Counted from the stretch's first letter, positions 22,226 through 55,303 are shown. The stretch: 64,000 bases of DNA from Rhodospirillaceae bacterium (GCA_002718345.1 PBDA01000031.1:17260-81259), one strand, 5' to 3'. Numbers and translations: made by a program. The notes: generated by a model from the sequence alone, not told the origin.

Positions 22226-22271
22226 TATTTTCTAGCTTGCCAGTCACACATGCCAACACTATAGTAGACAA

Positions 22272-22444
22272 TGACGGTACCCTTATGGGGTTTGAAAGGG
22301 AACACGGTGCGACAATTAATTATCAATACCGTGGCTGTGCCCGCAACTGTAAGCGGCTAGTTTATCTTCAGTTTTGCCACTGGGTTTTGTCCTGGGAAGG
22401 TCAGGAGGTAGATGGTGAGCCGTGAGCCAGGAGACCTGCCGTCA
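22272..22444 (+). promoter_or_regulatory. Cobalamin (B12) riboswitch aptamer
   Basis: Conserved core elements read directly from the sequence are GAAAGGGAACACGGTG, GTGCCCGCAACTGTAAGCGG, GCCACTGGG...CCTGGGAAGG and the B12 box AGCCAGGAGACCTGCC. The closing P1 helix is TGACGG (22272-22277) paired with CCGTCA (22439-22444). It lies about 155 nt upstream of a B12-type uptake operon. Confidence 0.9.
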
Positions 22445-22598
22445 CGTCGTCCATCCGAAGGCGGGTTACCTTAACGGAGCGGCTTTGCCGCAGCGGCGAC
22501 ACTGTCAGTGCGTATCTCTAAAGCACACACTTTGTCATAACTGTGTGAGAAGCAAAGATACCACTGTGATGTGTTTAAGTCTGCAATCAGGGTAAGGC

Positions 22599-23483
22599 AT
22601 GCCGGTGAACGGGAAATTTATTTCTATCTCTTTTAGATCGCTTTCAATCTATTTCAGGGGACTTCTTCTATTTTTAGTGCCGACAATTTCACTTGCATCT
22701 GAGCTACCAAAGAGAATTGTTTCCATTAACGTATGTGCTGATCAACTAGTTGCAACACTTGTTGAGCAAGAACGAATTATCTCTCTGTCGTACCTATCTC
22801 GAGATCCCAATTCTTCATGGCTTGGATCTTTAACAGAAAAAATACATATTAATCATGGAACTGCTGAAGAAATTATTTCACTAAACCCAGACCTGGTTGT
22901 TACGGGAGCCTTCGGTTTTCGCCCCACAGTATCAATACTAAAAAGACTTGGCTATAGAGTTCTAGAGTTACCATTCGCAAAAACGATTGACGATATTTCA
23001 ACAAATCTAAATTTGCTAACAAACGCTGTCGGCAATAATAAAAAAACAAATGCGCTAATAGATAGGTTTTATGAGGAAACAAAAAAAGTACCAATCAGTA
23101 CAACGGAAGTACTGCCACTTTTCGTTAATTACGAAACTAATGGCTGGATATCACGCGATGATTCTCTGCCTAACCACATAGCTCAAAGAGTTGGTTTTAA
23201 TACCATAGGCAGACAATACGAAGTGCTGACAAGCCACAAGATAGATCTTGAAGCACTTTTAATTCTAGGTCCTGATTTGATTAATATAGGGTATCAATGG
23301 AATGAGTCCCCAGCTCTGGTTTCAGAGTATATGCAACATCCAGCTCTTGAAGAATTACTAAGACGCACAAAACAAATTAATGTGCCAGACCCATACTGGC
23401 TTTGCGGTTCTCTAAAGACACAAGATGCAATTCTGATTCTGAAACAAGCGCGCGAGGAACTTTTTTCAAATAGAAAAAATTAA
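22599..23483 (+). CDS. btuF: ABC transporter periplasmic substrate-binding protein (BtuF/FecB cluster A type)
   Basis: 294 aa with a signal peptide. It shows the cluster A binding-protein pattern (RIVSINVCADQLV, NPDLVV) and is the first gene after the cobalamin riboswitch. Confidence 0.8.
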   Translation: MPVNGKFISISFRSLSIYFRGLLLFLVPTISLASELPKRIVSINVCADQLVATLVEQERIISLSYLSRDPNSSWLGSLTEKIHINHGTAEEIISLNPDLVVTGAFGFRPTVSILKRLGYRVLELPFAKTIDDISTNLNLLTNAVGNNKKTNALIDRFYEETKKVPISTTEVLPLFVNYETNGWISRDDSLPNHIAQRVGFNTIGRQYEVLTSHKIDLEALLILGPDLINIGYQWNESPALVSEYMQHPALEELLRRTKQINVPDPYWLCGSLKTQDAILILKQAREELFSNRKN

Positions 23484-23488
23484 ATTGA

Positions 23489-24490
23489 ATGAATCAAACC
23501 AAGTCTTTGCTGCCGCTAATGATTATTCTTAGTCTAGTAACTTTGACTCTATTCCTAATTTCTTTACTAGTTGGAAGTATGGGGATTGGGCTCCCTAGCG
23601 CACACACAACACTAAACAAAGTCGATCCCAAAATTTATTCATTAATACTTCAAGAAATAAGGCTTCCACGAGCGATTTTAGGATTTACCATTGGTGCATC
23701 ACTAGGTTTAGCAGGCGCCACACTGCAAGGGTATTTGCGTAACCCCCTAGCAGAGCCAGGGGTAATGGGTGTCTCAATGGCAGCTGCTTTGGGTGCGGTT
23801 ATTGCGATCTATACAGGAATTTCCTTAATCATTCCTATGGCGCTACCACTTATGGCGATCAGCGGTTCACTGATTGTCATATTTCTATTGCAATTGATAG
23901 CAGGTTCCGGTGGAACAGCCACTTTAATTCTAGCTGGCGTGGCAATTTCCAGTCTCTGTGGAGCGCTTACGTCCCTTGTACTTAATTTATCTGAAAATCC
24001 ATTTGCCTCTCTGGAGATTGTTTTTTGGTTGCTAGGATCTATTACAGACAGAAGTATGGCTCATGTGTGGTTATCTGGGCCCTTTGTCGCTATAGGCTGG
24101 TTACTTTTAGTTGCTAGCGCTCGCGATCTAGACGCATTAACTCTGGGTGAAGAGACAGCTGTAAGCCTCGGTGTTAATTTATCCCGAACACGCTTACTCG
24201 TTATCTCGGGCACAGCTTTCAGTGTTGGAGCATGCACTGCAGTGGCGGGCGTAATTGGTTTTGTTGGTTTGATAGTTCCACACTTAATGCGTCCTTTAGT
24301 TGGCTATCAACCAAGTCGTCTATTGCCGACAAGCGCATTAGCTGGAGCATCTCTTCTTCTTTGTGCAGATATCATGGTCAGACTTCTTAGTTTTAGTACA
24401 GAGCTAAAACTTGGTGTTGTAACTGCATTGATTGGAGGACCATTTTTCCTATTTTTAATTCTCAAACTCAGACAAAAAAGTATGACATGA
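23489..24490 (+). CDS. btuC: FecCD-family ABC permease (vitamin B12 import type)
   Basis: 333 aa, polytopic membrane protein. It has FecCD signatures (LPRAILGFTIGASLGLAGATLQG, GVVTALIGGPFFLFLI). Confidence 0.88.
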   Translation: MNQTKSLLPLMIILSLVTLTLFLISLLVGSMGIGLPSAHTTLNKVDPKIYSLILQEIRLPRAILGFTIGASLGLAGATLQGYLRNPLAEPGVMGVSMAAALGAVIAIYTGISLIIPMALPLMAISGSLIVIFLLQLIAGSGGTATLILAGVAISSLCGALTSLVLNLSENPFASLEIVFWLLGSITDRSMAHVWLSGPFVAIGWLLLVASARDLDALTLGEETAVSLGVNLSRTRLLVISGTAFSVGACTAVAGVIGFVGLIVPHLMRPLVGYQPSRLLPTSALAGASLLLCADIMVRLLSFSTELKLGVVTALIGGPFFLFLILKLRQKSMT

Positions 24491-34084: not shown

Positions 34085-35764
34085 CTAGAAACGCGAAGCA
34101 GTTAACTGAACATCTGCATCTTGCCAAGCTAGTTCGAAGTTAGCATAAATAAGAGCTGCTTCTTCAGTCTTTCCTAAATTTTCTAGGCTCCGCCAAAGAC
34201 CAAAAAGCGCCCAACCATTATTTGGATTATTAGTTAAATCCTTACGATAAATTCTTTCAGCATCTCGTGGTCTTCCAGCCTCAAGCAGAGCAGCACCAAG
34301 ATAATGCCTCATTGATTGAGGCCAATCCGGCGGCTCCGTGTACCCAAGGCTGTCCTCGATCGCCACGCTAGCTCCAAAGGAGGCAATGGCTTCTTGCAAT
34401 TTACCTTCGGCCTGCTTTATTTCGCCATCAAGACCCAAAGCAGCTATGTCCATAAGGACAGATACAGGAGTCGCGTTGCGCATAAGAGTAGCTGAAACTG
34501 GATCAGCAACTACACTTCTTAACTGTTCAAGATGTTCTCGTGCAATATCGAACTCCCCAAGTGCGGTTCGAGCGCTACCCTGTGTGTAGTGCCACATACC
34601 ATCCAGATACTGCTGCCCCTCACCGACTCTTTCCTCTGCAATAAGCTCATCCCAACCACCAAAAACTTTATGGACTATCCAACGAGAGGCTATGGTTTTA
34701 TCTGCTTGACCACGTTGCCTTCGCAACTCTGTTTCATGAGTGCGTGCATTTGTTGCCGCTTGAATAGCTAAATCATAACTACCCTGAATAGTGGCAGAGT
34801 AGCGAACGAAATCATAAGAATGTCTACGGTGGTTCTGTGCTGACAGTTGATAGGTTCCTGTACTAGGAAACGGGATGTCTCCCCACGTCTCTAAAAATTC
34901 ACCATCTACTTCAGCAGATCGTAGATTGTGTTCTACGTTCTTATCGTGTTGGCCCACCTGTAAATAAATATGTCCCGGCATGTGCACAACATGTCCTACC
35001 CCTGGCATAAGCGGAGCTAGACGATCAGCAGCTGCCAAAGCTTGCTCTGGCATAATCGAAGATTCATAAAGATGTATGTAAAGATGGTTCGCTCCCGGAT
35101 GATCAGGACGAATTTCCATTACTCGTTCTAATGCTGTAGCAGCTTCTTCAGTACCTGGAAGAGGGCTACCATCACTGTCCCAGTAGTCTCTCCGCAACCT
35201 AGTTATCATATATGCATCACCCAAAAGAGTACCTGCGTCTGGATCTTCTGGGTAAGTTTCAAACAAATTCCGAGCAGCTCTCAGATAAGCCTGATCTCGG
35301 TCATCACGATCAGGGTAGAGATCATAATCAAAACGTACACTGAGAGCCTGAACAAATGCCTGTTCTCTTTCATTGCCGTTATTTACTAATTCCATTGCCC
35401 TATCAATAGCTTTTTTTGCTTCACCATGTGGATCATCCGGCAAATCAAAAGCTCGACTGTTTGGAACAGGGCCTAAAGATAATGCTAACCCCCAATAAAT
35501 CATTGGGTGCTGAGGATCATGTCGTAATGCTTCTTGATAAGAAGCTACTGATTCGGGGAAATGATAACCCCAAGTGAGTCTTAACCCTTGATCAAAAAAT
35601 TCTTGGGCAACTGCTGATTCTGTGGAAATGGGACGTGTGTACGTACCTGTCCCCTCAACAAGTACCGCCAATACATCTTCACCATCTGTTACCTCTGAAG
35701 AGCAAGCCTTCAGGAACCATGAAACTAAAACAAAAGAAAAAATCTTGAAATTAGACTTGACCAC
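34085..35764 (-). CDS. Secreted or lipid-anchored TPR-repeat protein of unknown function
   Basis: 559 aa with an N-terminal signal sequence ending ...FLKACSS. It has multiple TPR-like helical repeats (SYQEALRHDP, RIYRKDLTNNP and others). Confidence 0.7.
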   Translation of the reverse strand: MVKSNFKIFSFVLVSWFLKACSSEVTDGEDVLAVLVEGTGTYTRPISTESAVAQEFFDQGLRLTWGYHFPESVASYQEALRHDPQHPMIYWGLALSLGPVPNSRAFDLPDDPHGEAKKAIDRAMELVNNGNEREQAFVQALSVRFDYDLYPDRDDRDQAYLRAARNLFETYPEDPDAGTLLGDAYMITRLRRDYWDSDGSPLPGTEEAATALERVMEIRPDHPGANHLYIHLYESSIMPEQALAAADRLAPLMPGVGHVVHMPGHIYLQVGQHDKNVEHNLRSAEVDGEFLETWGDIPFPSTGTYQLSAQNHRRHSYDFVRYSATIQGSYDLAIQAATNARTHETELRRQRGQADKTIASRWIVHKVFGGWDELIAEERVGEGQQYLDGMWHYTQGSARTALGEFDIAREHLEQLRSVVADPVSATLMRNATPVSVLMDIAALGLDGEIKQAEGKLQEAIASFGASVAIEDSLGYTEPPDWPQSMRHYLGAALLEAGRPRDAERIYRKDLTNNPNNGWALFGLWRSLENLGKTEEAALIYANFELAWQDADVQLTASRF

Positions 35765-35902: not shown

Positions 35903-36223
35903 CTAGAATTCTTCCGGTGCAATAGTAAATGTTAGGCCATCAAGATCTTCGGTCAGGAGAATCTGACAACTAAGGCGTGATTGTTTCTCAACATAGCAAG
36001 CTGAATCGCTAAGAAGCTGAGTTTCCTCTTCTTGCCTCTGTGCTAATTGATCAGTCCAATTGTGATCAACGATAACGTGGCATGTAGCACATGCACAAAG
36101 ACCTCCACAAATAGCATCGACACTGTCATCAAGTTCTCGGATATTCTCCATTAATGAAATACCAGATTGTCCATCATGCTCTAATAACTGGCCTGATCTA
36201 TTCTTAATTACAAGTCTTACCAT
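35903..36223 (-). CDS. 2Fe-2S ferredoxin (adrenodoxin/putidaredoxin type)
   Basis: 106 aa with the Cys pattern CGGLCACATCHV plus the distal SCQI. Confidence 0.85.
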   Translation of the reverse strand: MVRLVIKNRSGQLLEHDGQSGISLMENIRELDDSVDAICGGLCACATCHVIVDHNWTDQLAQRQEEETQLLSDSACYVEKQSRLSCQILLTEDLDGLTFTIAPEEF

Positions 36224-36249
36224 TCTTGAAACCTATGCCTATGTTATAA

Positions 36250-37008
36250 GTGGCGCACTATATCAAACCAGAATATATAACTTTAATCCTCAATTTAATG
36301 AATAAAAAATATTCAACAGACGTACACCTAGTGTTGTTTTTCAAGTCTCCAGATAACGCTAAAAGTCGACTGGCATTGGAAATAGGAAAATGTGCTTCTG
36401 AGGTGGCAAAGCTTTTGTGGGAATGCACACTCGAGGACCTCAATGATTGGCATGGCCAAATTTGGTTCTCTCCAGCAAACCTAGGCGATAGACTGTGGCT
36501 TGATTCCCAAGTTAGGCAACCTATGAAAGTCGTATCACAAGGAAACGGTAATCTAGGAGAGAGGATCAATCACGTAGATAAAATTCTTCGCTCTCAGAAC
36601 GTAAAAAAAATCATATATATTGGAATGGATTGCCCTGGACTAAACCCAAACTACCTAAGAAAAGCCGCTGATGAACTTCAACAAAGTGATGTGGTATTAG
36701 GTCCGTCACTTGATGGCGGCGTAGTGCTAATGGGTGCTCAGCATGCGTGGCCAGACTTATGCAATCTCCCATGGAGCACGAGTCGTCTATGTGATGAATT
36801 AAAAAATACTTGCAAAAAATCTAAACGAACATTTAAGCAACTACATACGCTTTATGATATCGATAGCAAACGCGACTTACTCTATGCTCAAAAAGACCTA
36901 GCATCTATAAGTAGAATTACCAGACAAAACCTCTTTAACTGGATAAAGGATAACTTGAAAGACTTTCAAGACAGCACTTCAAATAACACAGAAGGATTTA
37001 CCAATTGA
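36250..37008 (+). CDS. DUF2064-type nucleotidyl/glycosyl-transferase-like protein (rSAM/selenodomain-associated transferase 1 type)
   Basis: 252 aa with LFFKSPDNAKSRLA, QGNGNLGERI, IGMDCPGL and VLGPSLDGGVVLMG. The track start is GTG; the internal Met at 36298 (MNKKYS) is an alternative start. Confidence 0.8.
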   Translation: MAHYIKPEYITLILNLMNKKYSTDVHLVLFFKSPDNAKSRLALEIGKCASEVAKLLWECTLEDLNDWHGQIWFSPANLGDRLWLDSQVRQPMKVVSQGNGNLGERINHVDKILRSQNVKKIIYIGMDCPGLNPNYLRKAADELQQSDVVLGPSLDGGVVLMGAQHAWPDLCNLPWSTSRLCDELKNTCKKSKRTFKQLHTLYDIDSKRDLLYAQKDLASISRITRQNLFNWIKDNLKDFQDSTSNNTEGFTN

Positions 37009-37703
37009 AATTTATCCTTTTAGTCGTTTTAGCCCTTACAGCGCTAACTGTAACAACAATTTTTCCAGTTTCTGACTGGATTTTGTTTGGAAGTAAATGG
37101 ATAGATGAAAATCAGGTACTAGCGGGGCTCACATATATAACAGCTTACACAATAGCAACTATCCTTGTTATCCCCGGCACTATCTTGACGGTCACTGCTG
37201 GTTTTCTATTTGGCATCCCTTTGGGTATTGCAATAGTTTCGGCAGGAAGCTTATCAGGCGCATGTTGTTCATTTCTAATCAGCCGATTCTTTGCGCGGGA
37301 TTGGGTTAGCAATAAGTTTATTAAATTTCCATTATTCAATGCATTAGACACGGCATCCAAAGAAAAGGGATTTTTAATAATTCTCCTAGCGCGCTTATCA
37401 CCTTTGTTCCCTTACAACATTTTGAACTACGCTTTAGGCCTGACAGCTGTTACTTTTAAAAATTACATACTGGCATCCTGGATTGGAATGGCTCCTGGCA
37501 TCACTATATATGTCTCTATAGGAGCTGCTACAAAAAATATTTCAGGGCTTGCTAGCTCAGAAATACAATATGAAAACATTCAACAATTATTTTTCATTGC
37601 TGGATTGGTTGCAACACTTATACTACTTACAATTGTTATGCGCATGGCAAATAAAACGCTCCATAAAAAGCTAGATAGAACAATGGTAGATAGCCCGGAC
37701 TAG
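37005..37703 (+). CDS. TVP38/TMEM64 (DedA-superfamily) membrane protein
   Basis: 232 aa, polytopic. The family pattern is PGTILTVTAGFLFG ... LLARLSPLFPYNILNYALGLT. It overlaps the upstream gene by 4 nt. Confidence 0.8.
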   Translation: MKFILLVVLALTALTVTTIFPVSDWILFGSKWIDENQVLAGLTYITAYTIATILVIPGTILTVTAGFLFGIPLGIAIVSAGSLSGACCSFLISRFFARDWVSNKFIKFPLFNALDTASKEKGFLIILLARLSPLFPYNILNYALGLTAVTFKNYILASWIGMAPGITIYVSIGAATKNISGLASSEIQYENIQQLFFIAGLVATLILLTIVMRMANKTLHKKLDRTMVDSPD

Positions 37704-39169
37704 TGCTTACGACTGAACTAAATTCCCCCGATTACCCAGGCGCACAGTATGATCAAAACTGGCAAAAACTAACTTTTCCGCAAAACTATCGTAACCCAAT
37801 CCCAAAAAAGTGTTATCACTTGGTAATTATAGGTGCAGGTCCTGCAGGGTTAATTACCGCAATTACTGCATCTGGACTAGGCGCTAAAGTAGCGCTTATA
37901 GAACAGAGAGGAATGGGCGGCGACTGTCTCAATGTTGGTTGTGTACCTTCTAAGGCTTTGCTTGAGTTTACAAAACATAAATCATCCCCGACATTCAATG
38001 ACGCATTTTCATGGATGAGACAAACCCGAAATTTGATTGCCAGACATGATTCAGTTGAGAGATATGTCAAAAAAGGCGTTGATGTCTTTCTTGGGACTGG
38101 GAGTTTTCTTGACGAAAAAACAATAAAGGTTGGCGAGCAAGAATTAACTACACAAAAAACACTAATTGCTACAGGATCCAATCCAAAATTTCCTCACTTA
38201 ATTGGGCTATCAGAATCTCACCCTTTAACCAATGAATCTGTTTTTAATCTGACTGAACCACCAAAAGACCTTGCAATTCTTGGCGCAGGCCCTGTCGGTT
38301 GTGAACTCAGTCAAGCACTTTCCCGGCTTGGCATCAAAATAAATTTATTTGAAATAGCAGATAAAATACTTTCAAAAGAACACCCAAAAGCTAGCGACAT
38401 GGTTACTCAATTCCTACTTGATGACGGCGTCCAATTATTCACTGGAACAAAGATATCTGAAATAAAAAAAACTGATACTCATTTAATAGTATGTACTGAC
38501 AAAGGAAAGATAAGGGTCGAGAAAATCTTAGTCGCTGCAGGGCGTCAAGCAAACATTAACAGCCTAGGGATAGAGTCTATTGGTATAGAGCTTCGGAATG
38601 GACTAATAGCAGTTGATAACAAGCTTCGAACAACCAACCCTAAAGTATTTGCCGCAGGAGATGTCTGCTCACAGCTTCAGTACACACATAATGCTGATTC
38701 TCATGCGCGTATTGTCGTACAGAATTCATTATTTGCTCCCACGGCGACAACAGATAAACTTGTAGTGCCACATTGCACCTATACAAATCCTGAAGTTGCT
38801 AGCGTTGGAGAGACCCAAGAAACTCTGACGGCCCAAGGGGTCTCTTTTGATACGTATAACATTGCATTAGGTGACTTAGACCGAAGTCAAACAAGAGGAG
38901 ATCGCACAGGCTTTGTTGAAGTACTTACTTCTTCTAAAAGAGACAACATTCTTGGAGCAACTATCGTAGCCCGTGATGCTGGCGAACAAATAGCATCCAT
39001 TTGTGTTGCCATGGCTAATAACATAGGCCTCAGGGCACTTGGGAAAGCAGTCATTCCCTATCCGACAAGAGGAGAGTATCTCAAACGCTTAGCAGACACT
39101 TATAACCGAAAACGAATCACTCCTATCGCAAGAAAACTACTTAATATTTGGTTCCAAAAGAACGAATAA
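37703..39169 (+). CDS. FAD-dependent pyridine nucleotide-disulfide oxidoreductase (class I, redox-active CxxxxC)
   Basis: 488 aa with the FAD fold VIIGAGPAG, redox disulfide GGDCLNVGCVPSK, NAD fold ILGAGPVGCE and a C-terminal dimerisation domain. It has no NmerA domain and no C-terminal Cys pair. Confidence 0.88.
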   Translation: MLTTELNSPDYPGAQYDQNWQKLTFPQNYRNPIPKKCYHLVIIGAGPAGLITAITASGLGAKVALIEQRGMGGDCLNVGCVPSKALLEFTKHKSSPTFNDAFSWMRQTRNLIARHDSVERYVKKGVDVFLGTGSFLDEKTIKVGEQELTTQKTLIATGSNPKFPHLIGLSESHPLTNESVFNLTEPPKDLAILGAGPVGCELSQALSRLGIKINLFEIADKILSKEHPKASDMVTQFLLDDGVQLFTGTKISEIKKTDTHLIVCTDKGKIRVEKILVAAGRQANINSLGIESIGIELRNGLIAVDNKLRTTNPKVFAAGDVCSQLQYTHNADSHARIVVQNSLFAPTATTDKLVVPHCTYTNPEVASVGETQETLTAQGVSFDTYNIALGDLDRSQTRGDRTGFVEVLTSSKRDNILGATIVARDAGEQIASICVAMANNIGLRALGKAVIPYPTRGEYLKRLADTYNRKRITPIARKLLNIWFQKNE

Positions 39170-39184
39170 TGCAAGTTAAATACA

Positions 39185-39919
39185 GTGAATAAGCATTTTG
39201 ATATTGCCATAGTCATACCTGTTTTTCGTGACACAGAAAAATGCTGCTCACTGATAAATCGCATTCGAAATTGGCCCAAACAACCGGCTGAGATTGTTGT
39301 GGTATCAGCAGAACAGAATAAAGTGCTATTAAATTTTTGTGCTGATAACAACTGCCAATACACTACAGCTCATGAATGTAGAGGAACACAGCTAGATATT
39401 GGAGCTAAGTTAACTAAAGCAGCTGTATTGTGGTTCTTACATGCTGATTCAGTCCCTGACTCTAAAAGCCTAAACATAATAGAGACAAAATGTTTGAATA
39501 ACTATGGCAGCGGGCACTTTAAATTTAGATTTACAGGAGAACGAACTTGGAAAAAAATATTTCTTGAATCTCTAATAAAATTTCGTATTTTACTTGGTGG
39601 AATTGCATACGGAGATCAGGGTCTGTTTATGCAACGACAAAATTATTTGGACTGCGGAGGATTTGATAATCAACCATTATTTGAAGAAATTCGCTTAGTA
39701 AAAAATCTACGCAAGAAAACACAATTTCAATCTCTAAATACGCCAATTGGAGTTTCGCCAAGGCGCTGGATTCAAGGAGGTTGGATAAAACAAAGCCTAA
39801 AAAACCGCATATTGGTGATACGCTATCTTTTAGGTACACAGGCAGAAAAATTAGCTCATAGTTACTATATGGCACCCAAAGCCCAAAACTTTACCGCCGA
39901 CCAGGAGCCAAAGAAGTGA
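39185..39919 (+). CDS. Family 2 glycosyltransferase-like protein (rSAM/selenodomain-associated transferase 2 type)
   Basis: 244 aa with IAIVIPVFRD, FLHADS and YGDQGLFMQRQNYLDCGGFDNQPLFEEIRLVKNL. Confidence 0.8.
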   Translation: MNKHFDIAIVIPVFRDTEKCCSLINRIRNWPKQPAEIVVVSAEQNKVLLNFCADNNCQYTTAHECRGTQLDIGAKLTKAAVLWFLHADSVPDSKSLNIIETKCLNNYGSGHFKFRFTGERTWKKIFLESLIKFRILLGGIAYGDQGLFMQRQNYLDCGGFDNQPLFEEIRLVKNLRKKTQFQSLNTPIGVSPRRWIQGGWIKQSLKNRILVIRYLLGTQAEKLAHSYYMAPKAQNFTADQEPKK

Positions 39920-40824
39920 GCGTGGCGTTGGATTTGCTCAGATATACCCCAAGCGGTGAGCCTAGGGGTTATATAAAGCCCATCCAGTTGCGAGAACTAT
40001 GGTTCCATACCGGAACAGCATGCAATCTAGCATGTCCTTTTTGCCTGGAAGGCTCAAAACCTGGCGACAACCGTCTTGAACGAATAACTCTAGAAGATAC
40101 CCTTCCTTTTTTTGAAGATGCTGTATCACTAGGTGTTGAGCAGTTTTCATTTACCGGTGGTGAGCCTTTTATTGTAAAAGACTTTGTGCGTACCCTTGAA
40201 TACGCTTCAAATTTAAAGCCTTGTTTGGTATTAACAAATGGTACTGATCCCCTGTTAAAACGAATTAATCAACTAGATTCGCTCATTTATCAACCAAATC
40301 AGGTTGCATTCCGGATAAGTATCGACTATCACGATGAGTCAAAACACGATGGTGGACGAGGCACTGGAAGCTTCCAAAAATCTCTAGAAAGCTTAAAGGC
40401 TCTGGATGAGAAAGGATTCAAAATATCAGTTGCCAGGCAAATGACTATCAATGAAGATAGCAATGCTATTGATAGGATATATCGTACTTTATTCAGAAAA
40501 CAGGGGATTCCTGAAAACACGACAATCGTGTCTTTCCCGGATTTCTTTACACCAGGATCAACACCTACCGTACCCTCTATTACAGAGAACTGCATGACCA
40601 CCTATCACTCCAAAAAAACTAGGGAAGCATTCATGTGCTCATTCTCAAAAATGGTAGTTAAAAAAAATGGGAAAATGCGAATTTATGCATGCACATTAGT
40701 TGATGATGATGAAACTTATGACCTTGGTAGCGATCTAAAAGAAAGCATAGAAAAAAAAATTATGATGCGGCATCACCGCTGTTATAGTTGCTTTACTTAT
40801 GGGTCGTCGTGCAGCGAAATTTAA
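39916..40824 (+). CDS. Radical SAM enzyme with a Cys-rich C-terminal domain
   Basis: 302 aa with CX3CX2C at C36/C40/C43 (ACNLACPFC) and the SAM-binding motif FTGGEPF. Six further Cys fall in the last 77 residues, including the terminal CYSCFTYGSSC. It overlaps the GT2 gene by 4 nt. Confidence 0.85.
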   Translation: MSVALDLLRYTPSGEPRGYIKPIQLRELWFHTGTACNLACPFCLEGSKPGDNRLERITLEDTLPFFEDAVSLGVEQFSFTGGEPFIVKDFVRTLEYASNLKPCLVLTNGTDPLLKRINQLDSLIYQPNQVAFRISIDYHDESKHDGGRGTGSFQKSLESLKALDEKGFKISVARQMTINEDSNAIDRIYRTLFRKQGIPENTTIVSFPDFFTPGSTPTVPSITENCMTTYHSKKTREAFMCSFSKMVVKKNGKMRIYACTLVDDDETYDLGSDLKESIEKKIMMRHHRCYSCFTYGSSCSEI

Positions 40825-42027: not shown

Positions 42028-42291
42028 ATGCAAATTTGTCACTCACATAATTTAAGCAGCGCCCAAAAGAATTCTAAACCTTACGGTATTCGTGTAAGTC
42101 TTCCTAAAGGAGATGCTTTCATAGCACTGCTTGGTTCAGACTGGGCTCAGTTCCACTGGTTTGCTACACCTGAAGAACGCGATATAAAACTTGACGATAT
42201 GGCAAGTGAACACTTGTATTCCCGGCGAGGCGACCGACCTAGCCTAATTTTTAAACCAGTAGAAAAATCAGAAAAGTCGGATTCTCAGTAA
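42028..42291 (+). CDS. Hypothetical small protein
   Basis: 87 aa with no signal peptide or TM helix. I recognise no motif. It lies 81 nt upstream of, and co-directional with, the next unknown ORF. Confidence 0.45.
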   Translation: MQICHSHNLSSAQKNSKPYGIRVSLPKGDAFIALLGSDWAQFHWFATPEERDIKLDDMASEHLYSRRGDRPSLIFKPVEKSEKSDSQ

Positions 42292-42372: not shown

Positions 42373-43737
42373 ATGCTTGATCTTATGAAGATTGCTCAGA
42401 CCGAGGCGCAGGGAGGAAACCTATTTGGACACCTCGAAAAACTGTTTGAGCCCTCCGATATTCAACCTTCAGGTTATAAAGATGCAGTAATCTGGAAAGG
42501 CGGAAACCATTGCGGGACGGTAAATCCGGTAGCCCATTCTCTTACTGATGCTTATGCACTACTGGGAACAATTGCAGCTATTGATGTTCTGCAACTTCCT
42601 TTTTATGCGGTTCCTATGTGGGCACAGTACCGCCATGACACAAAGCTTGCCCCATTAAGCTGGTTTGGGAATATGCCATGTACATCAATCAAATGGTCAA
42701 CTGCAGGTGATGCATATGTAAATGATGCGCACGGCAAAAAAGTTGTTGTTATGGGAAAATCAGGTAATGCGCCCCTAAGGACACAAGCGGGAGTCTACTG
42801 TAATATTCGTCCATACGGACGCACAACTGTAGTTCGTTGTATGCCTTGTCTACCATACTCCCAAGATAAGGCTCTTTTCGACGTCAACCCAGAAACCGGA
42901 ATAATACACAGCGAAATGAACACACCAGGTATTCAGATGGCTTATGCAAACCGTCGTTTCCTAAAGATGGTTCATGAGACAGGTAGAATTGGACGGGTAG
43001 CTTTCAAACCAACACAGGCGCAAGAGGATGGCATTAACTCTGGGCTTCTTTCATGGATGCTAGAAGGCACAAAATTTGAGGTGGGCCGTAAGTATGCGGT
43101 CGATGGTTATGTGGAACATCGTGAATTGGTCGACCGCATAATTAACTTATTACCTGCAAATTTTAAAGATGGTATGGATAGCTGGAGCGGTAGAATCGAA
43201 CAACATATTTCTGATACTAATTATGGAATACTAATTTGGGATCTCATTAAAAATGAAGATGTAATCATTCTAGCAACCGATCTTGACGGTGACCGACTAA
43301 CAGACCTGCTTGCCGATGTATCAGACCCGCTTCGAGCATTTGGAGAAAAAGTTCTCGATCATGTTGGTGTAAGCGTTGATGATCTATGGGGTGAAATGGG
43401 GTACACCACAGGAAACGGCCGTGATATGACATCAGTCATGTATCGTATGGAGGGACCACCAATACACGAGCAAACTCTCGGCTCAGCTGATGCCATGCTT
43501 CTGAGGCTGTTAGATGGGGATGAATCAATGGGTGGCACTAAACGCCCTTATGATCCTCGGATTCACTTCGTACTAATACGTGATGCTTATAGAGATGCTA
43601 ATCCTGATAACCAAGCACTTCATGATTGGTTAGATAAAGCACTTGCAACTTTTGATAATGTCTACGCTGGTGAAAGACCTGGATTTCTGGAAGGATACAC
43701 AAGGCTTAAAAAAGCCATTACTGCCTGGGGTGATTAA
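42373..43737 (+). CDS. Hypothetical soluble protein of unknown function
   Basis: 454 aa, a long clean ORF with GGAGAAA 7 nt upstream of the ATG. It has no TM helix or signal peptide, contains a CMPC pair, and has no family motif I can name. Confidence 0.7.
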   Translation: MLDLMKIAQTEAQGGNLFGHLEKLFEPSDIQPSGYKDAVIWKGGNHCGTVNPVAHSLTDAYALLGTIAAIDVLQLPFYAVPMWAQYRHDTKLAPLSWFGNMPCTSIKWSTAGDAYVNDAHGKKVVVMGKSGNAPLRTQAGVYCNIRPYGRTTVVRCMPCLPYSQDKALFDVNPETGIIHSEMNTPGIQMAYANRRFLKMVHETGRIGRVAFKPTQAQEDGINSGLLSWMLEGTKFEVGRKYAVDGYVEHRELVDRIINLLPANFKDGMDSWSGRIEQHISDTNYGILIWDLIKNEDVIILATDLDGDRLTDLLADVSDPLRAFGEKVLDHVGVSVDDLWGEMGYTTGNGRDMTSVMYRMEGPPIHEQTLGSADAMLLRLLDGDESMGGTKRPYDPRIHFVLIRDAYRDANPDNQALHDWLDKALATFDNVYAGERPGFLEGYTRLKKAITAWGD

Positions 43738-54457: not shown

Positions 54458-55210
54458 CTACTGTTGGGCTACTCGATTGTTCTGGGTATTTCTGATTAGT
54501 GTTAAGTCAACTCGCCTTTCCATTGCCATCGCATCAACATCATTTTCTTCAGCCGAAGCGAAAGCTTCCCCATGCGCATTCATAATGACTCTGCTAGCAG
54601 GTACACCTCCTCTGACTAAAGCTTCCTTGACAGCAGCAACACGCTCCTCAGCAAGTTGCTTGTTATCCAACAATGAGCCACGAGCATCTGTATGGCCATC
54701 GATTCGAATCATAGTGTTATCAAGACGAGCTAATAACTCAGACAAACGAACAAGCCTGGACTCTGTTATATCAGGCAGTTTGCTTTCATTTGTTGTGAAA
54801 AGGACCTTGATATCAAGTGCATCAGTAACACTTGACTGCATTTGGCTATCATTTTCCTGTAACTCAGCCTCAAGCGAAGCAATGATAAATCCATTATCTT
54901 TGATTAAAGCATTTAGTGAGCGTACTTCTGCCTGCGCCTTTGTCCACTTGCGCTCATACTCAAATTGCGCAACATGCTTCATATCCAATATATCCCCAAC
55001 AAAAGCCCCCATTGCTGCGCCAAAAACCAACCCAACAGGACCTCCGGCAAGAGCTCCTATAGCTGCACCACTACCAATCCCAAGAGACTCGTGTTTTGAT
55101 TTTGATACTGCTTCAGAGGTCCAACCGCTAGATATGGACATGAGCAAAATTAAGAAGATGGTTATAGATCTAATCATGGCAAGGCTCCTTTGCTTCAATC
55201 GCCAGTTCAA
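54458..55210 (-). CDS. OmpA-family peptidoglycan-binding protein with an N-terminal Gly-zipper and coiled coil
   Basis: 250 aa. It has a signal peptide (probably from Met12, MIRSITIFLILLMSISSG) and the Gly-zipper GIGSGAAIGALAGGPVGLVFGAAMGAFVG. The OmpA_C motifs are RIDGHTDARGS, NKQLAEERVAAVKEAL and ERRVDL. Confidence 0.85.
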   Translation of the reverse strand: MNWRLKQRSLAMIRSITIFLILLMSISSGWTSEAVSKSKHESLGIGSGAAIGALAGGPVGLVFGAAMGAFVGDILDMKHVAQFEYERKWTKAQAEVRSLNALIKDNGFIIASLEAELQENDSQMQSSVTDALDIKVLFTTNESKLPDITESRLVRLSELLARLDNTMIRIDGHTDARGSLLDNKQLAEERVAAVKEALVRGGVPASRVIMNAHGEAFASAEENDVDAMAMERRVDLTLIRNTQNNRVAQQ

Positions 55211-55303
55211 GTTTTGGTACTGGCTATATTGAAGATCTACCGTGCCCTAGGACTGATCAAAACTAGCAAAACACTCAGAAAAAATGGCGAATTCTGACGA
55301 GGG

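Follow-up and report, generated by a model that had tools for sequence, protein, structure and literature searches.

What chemistry is encoded by a compact six-gene locus in a genome deposited as that of a Rhodospirillaceae bacterium, and is the radical S-adenosylmethionine (SAM) enzyme at its end the arsenosugar biosynthesis protein ArsS? The locus lies in a 64,000-nucleotide stretch of DNA (GCA_002718345.1 PBDA01000031.1:17260-81259), here called the window. It consists of five co-directional genes, for a DUF2064 protein, a DedA-superfamily membrane protein, a flavoenzyme, a GT2-like transferase and the radical SAM protein, and a divergently transcribed ferredoxin gene. Arsenosugars and arsenolipids are the dominant organic forms of arsenic in the sea, and to our knowledge arsenosugar biosynthesis is understood no further than the steps catalyzed by ArsM and ArsS in a cyanobacterium. 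The comparisons below indicate that the locus is most likely a reduced ‘type-2’ arsenosugar-type cassette in which ArsS is replaced by a distant sister family, that is, a variant of a known system and not a new kind of system.

The radical SAM protein and its relation to ArsS

The radical SAM protein matches PF04055 (Radical_SAM, 62.9 bits) and contains the motif C36-X3-C40-X2-C43. An initial annotation, made from the sequence alone, had tied it to the ArsS model TIGR04167, and this assignment fails. The protein scores 54.9 bits against a TIGR04167 cut-off of 300, the match covers only model positions 6–151 of 303 (the N-terminal core), and a Pfam scan (E <= 1e-3) finds no DUF3641 match. As a positive control, a curated Acinetobacter cassette returns 471.1 bits for TIGR04167 over positions 2–303, with 274 bits for TIGR04283 and 197.7 bits for TIGR04282. 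The protein is therefore not ArsS by that family’s own definition, and ArsS identity is ruled out. Ten further members of its family score 48–70 bits against TIGR04167, none attaining the cut-off. The best NCBIfam match of the window protein, to the Rv1681 family, reaches 95.6 bits where 380 would be required.

BLASTP aligns the protein with genuine ArsS in the core alone, at 26% identity. Alignment with hhalign covers the whole length (probability 99%, E 5.7e-18, 271 columns, ~24% identity) and spans four C-terminal cysteine motifs, MC.., ..C(T/D), HxCYxC and SSC. The family is thus a distant sister of ArsS with a shared architecture, and the suggestion that its Cys-rich tail corresponds to that of ArsS is borne out. 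The family is compact, with 75 clusters at 50% identity and E <= 1e-30. Among the best 120 matches listed in a set of 5.8 billion proteins, all are at least 64% identical, 301–321 aa long, and carry generic names only. Aligning 23 members, the most distant at 27% identity, reveals invariant C36, C40 and C43 (23/23), GGEP, R133 and D137, together with C-terminal C241, C259, C289 and C292; C299 is present in at least 90%. Every family-invariant residue is kept in the window protein, for which AF2 gives a model with pLDDT 92 and pTM 0.91.

Family-wide neighborhoods and the arsenic link

A scan of one genome per species yielded at least 594 confirmed stretches, and the best 80 loci (52–69% identical) were used for comparison. 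They derive from Marinobacter, Motiliproteus, Alcanivorax, Halomonas, Neptuniibacter, Methylotenera, Nitrosomonas, Nitrosovibrio, Desulfuromonadales, Emcibacter, Verrucomicrobia, Planctomycetes and Lentisphaeria. Neighbors within 6 kb of the radical SAM gene were counted in the 50 loci flanked by 5 kb or more on each side: the flavoenzyme is present in 31/50, DedA in 29/50, DUF2064 in 22/50, the GT2-like transferase in 19/50, the arsenite methyltransferase ArsM in 15/50 and the ferredoxin in 3/50. The full partner set accompanies the family in Methylotenera, Nitrosomonas, Nitrosovibrio, Motiliproteus, Neptuniibacter, Emcibacter, Thermogutta and others, and the betaproteobacterial order is DUF2064-GT-ArsM-radical SAM-DedA/flavoenzyme. 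Unbiased clustering of open reading frames (ORFs) also places a methylthioadenosine (MTA) phosphorylase directly 3’ of the radical SAM gene in 12–13 loci (TIGR01694, 284.6 bits against a cut-off of 274.85), and identifies DUF547 proteins in 6–9 loci, an SSF symporter in 17 and an FNR-like reductase in 6.

Gene fusions tie the family more directly to arsenic. ArsM is fused to the radical SAM protein in P0122, P0123 and P0139, three independent fusion proteins that include both domain orders, and these are the three closest multidomain relatives (41–51% identity). Other fusions join the radical SAM protein to a TIGR04282 (DUF2064) domain that passes its cut-off (P0168), an HD domain of 5’-deoxynucleotidase-like type (P0175), metallophosphoesterases (P0170 and P0191) and a pyridine-nucleotide oxidoreductase (P0211). 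The links to MTA phosphorylase, HD and metallophosphoesterase proteins point to an adenosyl product or another nucleoside-derived small molecule. Cysteine motifs of the As(III) type (CC, GCG, SNCVINL and GEC) are conserved in 26–27 of 27 linked methyltransferase sequences. In a rough neighbor-joining tree, ArsM-linked loci occur in every major clade and the ArsM-less clade of the window is nested among them, the nearest ArsM-linked homologs (L011 and L012) being 60–62% identical to the window protein. Of the selenium, arsenic or sulfur chemistry suggested at the outset, it is to arsenic that the ArsM fusions, the adjacency and the intact As(III)-binding motifs point across the family.

The same partners surround genuine ArsS on plasmids. 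In Acinetobacter portensis pJNE5-X3_NDM-1, arsS lies with genes for a bifunctional TVP38/TMEM64-FAD oxidoreductase, DUF547, TIGR04283 and TIGR04282 proteins and a methyltransferase, with mtnP near. Burkholderia thailandensis p2002721643 carries arsS, MTA phosphorylase, TIGR04283, TIGR04282 and the bifunctional TVP38/TMEM64-FAD oxidoreductase. The window proteins are 27–38% identical to their counterparts in the curated cassettes. No true ArsS accompanies the sister family in any of 84 loci. With components shared and no ArsS co-occurring, the cassette is therefore the known one, its radical SAM enzyme exchanged for the sister family.

Several loci show further variation. In Marinobacter (e.g., L040, 10980–13354), the radical SAM gene is followed by an SSF-family symporter gene and a gene for a 323-aa protein without a family match, and is preceded by an extracytoplasmic function (ECF) sigma/anti-sigma pair. 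On M. adhaerens HP15 plasmid pHP-187 (L085), the PLSDB table enters no gene for the radical SAM ORF at 90097–90988. On Roseomonas haemaphysalidis plasmid p546-1 (L086, 5013–16109), a 33%-identical family member is preceded by another radical SAM gene, of 459 aa, and followed by genes for an ABC transporter of phosphonate type and for a metallophosphoesterase; VTT, FAD oxidoreductase, DUF547, DoxX and chalcone-isomerase-like genes are found on the opposite strand. This distant variant hints at uptake of a phosphonate-like compound, perhaps methylarsonate.

Partner proteins, gene boundaries and surroundings

The locus is of the neighborhood type defined in TIGRFAMs/NCBIfam around TIGR04282, TIGR04283 and TIGR04167, as originally recognized, with both transferases in one operon-like run. 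Each of the two transferases narrowly misses the cut-off of its curated family. The DUF2064 protein meets the Pfam threshold for PF09837 (81.7 bits) and scores 120 bits against TIGR04282 (cut-off 134) in a full-length match over model positions 1–189; it is 27–38% identical to curated TIGR04282 proteins from ArsS cassettes. The GT2-like protein, for which the Pfam scan finds no match, scores 174.8 bits against TIGR04283 (cut-off 182), also full-length (positions 1–221), and is 28% identical to curated TIGR04283 proteins. Partners of the radical SAM family mostly fall below these cut-offs, at 117–120 bits for DUF2064 and 157–175 bits for the GT2-like transferases.

The DedA protein contains a VTT domain (PF09335, 96.1 bits) and is 32–34% identical to the N-terminal half of the protein that PGAP names ‘bifunctional TVP38/TMEM64 family protein/FAD-dependent oxidoreductase’ in ArsS cassettes; the flavoenzyme is 35–36% identical to the C-terminal half. 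The flavoenzyme matches Pyr_redox_2 (206.7 bits), with the redox-active CxxxxC within GGDCLNVGC, and scores 541.6 bits against NF004991 (cut-off 620) and 340.9 bits against the MerA model TIGR02053 (cut-off 454). Its closest solved relatives are mercuric reductases, the best PDB sequence match being MerA 5x1y. At the position of the catalytic His of dihydrolipoamide dehydrogenase (LipDH; ‘HAHPSLSE’) it has a Tyr (‘IPYPTRGE’), as does MerA (‘APYLTMAE’). Its C-terminus, ‘...LLNIWFQKNE’, has no Cys pair, and Pfam detects no N-terminal HMA (NmerA) domain. DedA and the flavoenzyme are the commonest neighbors of the radical SAM gene, occurring in ~60% of the well-flanked loci, and form one fused protein of ~716 aa in 41 loci. 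The view that the pair is an unusual insert between the transferases is thus contradicted by these frequencies and by the Acinetobacter and Burkholderia plasmid ArsS cassettes. A lineage-specific insertion, as suggested by relatives L001 and L002, which lack the pair, is ruled out by the 80 loci and the same curated cassettes. Lipid scrambling has been proposed as the role of COG0398 DedA proteins, whose commonest fusions, to Pyr_redox domains, have no known function (PMC10127716). The searchable literature yielded no paper linking the DedA-flavoenzyme to ars genes.

The ferredoxin matches PF00111 at exactly the threshold (21.0 bits) and TIGR02007 at 50.6 bits, and its motif, C39-X5-C45-X2-C48...C, is of adrenodoxin type. 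It may donate electrons to the cluster of the radical SAM enzyme. The initial annotation had given it this role; the divergent gene is indeed present, and its pairing with the cassette is lineage-specific and confined to the clade of the window, where it occupies the same position in L001–L004, L006 and L007 (56–76% identity). In Desulfuromonadales an FNR-like reductase is encoded at its place, consistent with the dependence of radical SAM turnover on a reductant at its onset.

Table 1. Genes of the cassette, with positions counted from the first nucleotide of the window
Product	Position	Strand	Supporting matches
Ferredoxin, 2Fe-2S, adrenodoxin/ISC type, 106 aa	35903-36223	-	PF00111, TIGR02007, Cys motif
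DUF2064 / TIGR04282-like protein, CofC/MobA-like nucleotidyltransferase fold	36250-37008	+	PF09837, TIGR04282
DedA-superfamily membrane protein, VTT domain, TVP38/TMEM64 type	37005-37703	+	PF09335
Class I flavoprotein pyridine-nucleotide disulfide oxidoreductase, MerA-like	37703-39169	+	Pyr_redox_2, NF004991, TIGR02053
GT2-like / TIGR04283-like transferase	39185-39919	+	TIGR04283
Radical SAM enzyme, uncurated ArsS sister family, C-terminal Cys-rich (twitch/SPASM-like) domain	39916-40824	+	PF04055, CX3CX2C

Re-reading of the sequence reproduces the originally described ORF coordinates, overlaps and gap exactly, and each domain call is backed by Pfam or NCBIfam matches (Table 1). The junctions are a 4-nt overlap at 37005–37008 (TTGA), a 1-nt overlap at 37703 (TAGTG), a 15-nt gap at 39170–39184 and a 4-nt overlap at 39916–39919 (GTGA). 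ATG 36298, and not GTG 36250, is the probable start of the DUF2064 gene: the model match opens at residue 27 and orthologs are called at 222–231 aa; this start gives a 74-bp spacer to the divergent ferredoxin gene. Promoter and terminator scans detect nothing exceeding shuffled controls, and an Rfam scan finds no RNA element or riboswitch at the cassette.

Conservation of the cluster as a unit, on which the initial annotation depended, is observed: the six-gene order is kept at 75% radical SAM identity in L003 and L004, and with variations in dozens of genomes. L003 and L004 also share synteny with purT and with genes for a TPR protein and an MscS protein, and L001 and L002 (68% identity) have the arrangement ferredoxin | DUF2064-GT-radical SAM. 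The TPR and MscS proteins and ORFs of 87 and 454 aa were considered as cassette members and rejected as lineage synteny confined to the closest relatives.

These flanking genes have features of their own. The 559-aa TPR-repeat protein, with a lipoprotein-like N-terminus, is encoded at 34085–35764 (-), 138 bp downstream of the ferredoxin gene on the same strand. The pairing is kept in L001–L004 (69–79% identity), the TPR gene is not near the radical SAM gene in other lineages, and the two genes may be co-transcribed. The 454-aa ORF at 42373–43737 (+) has no Pfam, NCBIfam or PDB sequence match and is 82–88% identical to its orthologs where the radical SAM protein is only 65–75% identical, which marks its product as strongly constrained. 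The 87-aa ORF upstream, at 42028–42291 (+), is 61–65% conserved, and both ORFs are seen only in the clade of the window. Elsewhere in the window, a cobalamin riboswitch (RF00174, 110.9 bits) at 22258–22457 (+) precedes genes for a BtuF-like protein (22599–23483) and a BtuC-like permease (23489–24490) in an ordinary B12-regulated uptake operon. Two ORFs of ~250 aa, at 54458–55210 (-) and 54477–55232 (+), overlap almost completely in antisense; probably no more than one of them is genuine.

Proposed function, alternatives and known systems

ArsS adenosylates the trivalent dimethylated arsenical DMAs(III) to 5’-deoxy-5’-dimethylarsinoyl-adenosine (DDMAA) (PMC13598754; PMC12159101). An ArsS-like adenosylation of a trivalent methylarsenical is the reaction that we slightly favor for the window enzyme, given the homology, the fusions and the shared accessory genes. 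The pathway that we infer from gene order, translational coupling, domain content, ArsS homology and the fusions and adjacency would begin with reduction of a [4Fe-4S] cluster on C36/C40/C43 by the divergent 2Fe-2S ferredoxin. SAM would then be cleaved and the 5’-deoxyadenosyl radical added to a trivalent methylated arsenical, forming a C-As bond as in ArsS and yielding a 5’-deoxy-5’-arsinoyl-adenosine, while the C-terminal cysteines would hold an auxiliary Fe-S cluster. Adenine might be removed by MTA phosphorylase in related cassettes and by a housekeeping enzyme here, after which the DUF2064 and GT2-like proteins could activate the arsenoribose and transfer it to an acceptor. DedA and the MerA-like flavoenzyme may form a membrane-associated module that keeps the arsenical reduced and reactive; alternatively, the module may move the arsenical, or a lipid-linked product, across the membrane. 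The methylated substrate would have to be supplied by the environment or by an ArsM whose gene lies beyond the window.

Several observations weigh against this reading. Support for an arsenic function is guilt by association throughout, in the form of genomic association, and the most frequent association of the radical SAM gene is with the DedA-flavoenzyme, not with ArsM. The absence of arsM from the window, reported at the outset, is confirmed: tblastn with two ArsM domains over the whole 64 kb gives a best E of 1.3. Neither MTA phosphorylase nor DUF547 is encoded in the 64-kb window, and none of the three adjoins the cassette in the clade of the window (L001–L010, L014 and L015). With no ArsM beside the cassette in the window or its clade, the arsenic substrate is therefore unaccounted for here. 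A comparison of ArsM homologs with long contigs of ArsM-less genomes, one of 4,388,645 bp, covered the best 120 matches, which extend down to 68% identity. All three core proteins score below their cut-offs, so a shifted substrate or product is possible. Finally, the searchable literature yielded no paper on the ArsS sister family, no biochemically characterized member of it, and none of either ‘glycosyltransferase’.

A shift of this kind could mean that the same cassette serves another acceptor, either in the ArsM-less lineage or across the whole sister family: selenium, tellurium, antimony, or inorganic or monomethyl As(III), with a product other than a dimethylarsinoyl riboside. The parallel divergence of the radical SAM, DUF2064 and GT2-like proteins from the curated models suggests a co-diverged set. 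The missing ArsM, MTA phosphorylase and DUF547 genes, the MerA-like flavoenzyme with Tyr for the catalytic His, and the 33%-identical Roseomonas member beside a phosphonate-type transporter and a second radical SAM gene all lean the same way. The nesting of the window clade among ArsM-linked clades with relatives as close as L011 and L012, the complete set of family-invariant residues and the As(III)-type motifs of the linked methyltransferases lean the other, and on balance we regard a different acceptor as rather unlikely, though worth keeping in view. It is unlikely, too, that the ArsM-less, ferredoxin-equipped cassette, in place of detoxifying methylarsenicals made by the cell itself, salvages methylated arsenic from phytoplankton, with DedA and the flavoenzyme importing and reducing pentavalent dimethylarsenate for adenosylation by the ArsS-like enzyme, or that the sister family, by chemistry unlike that of ArsS, yields a new class of organo-metalloids. 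Were salvage to prove true, it would provide the COG0398 DedA-oxidoreductase fusions with their first function, that of metalloid reductase-translocases, and heterotrophic marine bacteria would be a previously unrecognized source of arsenosugar-type compounds.

Decidedly doubtful is a core formed by the radical SAM enzyme and the DedA-flavoenzyme, acting as a stress module for membrane redox or lipid homeostasis in which the radical SAM enzyme modifies a lipid or cofactor and the arsenic genes are passengers. The pair is the top neighbor and the sole cassette partner in 14/50 loci, those of Marinobacter carrying the ECF sigma/anti-sigma pair, the symporter and the 323-aa protein; DoxX, chalcone-isomerase-like and sterol-desaturase genes lie near some loci, and a scramblase role has been proposed for COG0398 proteins (PMC10127716). 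Such a module leaves the three ArsM fusions, the DUF2064 fusion and the links to MTA phosphorylase, HD and phosphoesterase proteins unexplained; since curated ArsS cassettes contain the same DedA-flavoenzyme, the simpler view is that it belongs to the cassette. Structural and sequence comparisons with the PDB bring up SkfB, SuiB, BlsE, MoaA and EpeE, and names given by JGI to relatives include ‘sulfatase maturation enzyme AslB’ and ‘MoaA’, as if the protein were a twitch/SPASM-type maturase of ribosomally synthesized and post-translationally modified peptides (RiPPs) or of a cofactor. The nearest solved folds to the model (SkfB, BlsE, SuiB and MoaA, of twitch/SPASM type) match weakly, at TM ~0.5–0.6 and 13–21% identity in the shared core only, and Pfam finds no SPASM (PF13186) match. 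The recurrent neighbors are small-molecule enzymes and include no precursor peptide, sulfatase or molybdopterin gene. With a generic core likeness only and no substrate gene among the neighbors, a RiPP-, AslB- or MoaA-type maturase is ruled out and any maturase role is highly improbable. It is no more credible that the six genes are neighbors by descent in one lineage with no joint function. The promoter and terminator scans are no better than shuffled controls, and the TPR, purT and MscS synteny of close relatives is mere lineage synteny; the three start/stop overlaps and the 15-nt gap argue for a unit, as does recurrence of the same families, in shuffled orders and with several fusions, in Gamma-, Beta- and Alphaproteobacteria, Verrucomicrobia, Planctomycetes and Lentisphaeria.

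An arsenosugar-type cassette with a substituted ArsS thus remains the most likely identity of the locus. In many uncultured lineages from the sea, and in cultured Marinobacter, Halomonas, Alcanivorax, Methylotenera, Nitrosomonas and Nitrosovibrio, this cassette is filled by a second, unannotated ArsS-like family; the cultured carriers are suited to functional tests. The sister family falls outside the ArsS model, and gene surveys based on that model therefore miss it. The commonest DedA fusion, of a TVP38-type protein with a pyridine-nucleotide disulfide oxidoreductase, is now tied to organoarsenical cassettes as a testable hypothesis. The interest of the locus is moderate and lies mainly in a widespread family that current annotation does not see, and in the testable context that the DedA-oxidoreductase pair gains.

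Among known systems, ArsL of arsinothricin biosynthesis is a further radical SAM enzyme; it likewise forms a C-As bond and acts together with ArsM. It transfers a 3-amino-3-carboxypropyl group and belongs to another family, with similarity to the window protein not above the generic core. MerA resembles the flavoenzyme as its best solved-structure match and in the CxxxxC and the Tyr replacing the His acid-base catalyst; the window protein differs in lacking NmerA and the C-terminal Cys-Cys pair, and in scoring well below the MerA cut-off. The DedA and flavoenzyme genes, with their 1-nt overlap, are the unfused equivalent of the COG0398 DedA-PF07992/PF02852 fusions (PMC10127716), here tied to ArsS and ArsS-like cassettes. 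The Synechocystis ArsM/ArsS arsenosugar pathway (Cheng et al. 2021, as cited in PMC12159101 and described in PMC13598754) has a homologous enzyme architecture, and 5’-deoxyadenosyl transfer to As(III) is predicted for the window family by that homology; Synechocystis is a cyanobacterium, whereas the window host is a heterotrophic marine gammaproteobacterium. The curated ArsS cassettes share with the window the radical SAM CX3CX2C motif and Cys-rich tail, the DUF2064-type and GT2-like proteins, and TVP38/TMEM64 with an FAD oxidoreductase. With the sister family at large they also share an ArsM subfamily (48% identity between the Acinetobacter methyltransferase and the fused ArsM domains), MTA phosphorylase (41–52%) and DUF547. 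The window cassette departs from them in its separate radical SAM family (54.9 versus 471 bits; ~24–26% identity), sub-cut-off transferases, unfused DedA and flavoenzyme, divergent ferredoxin, and lack of ArsM, MTA phosphorylase and DUF547 genes.

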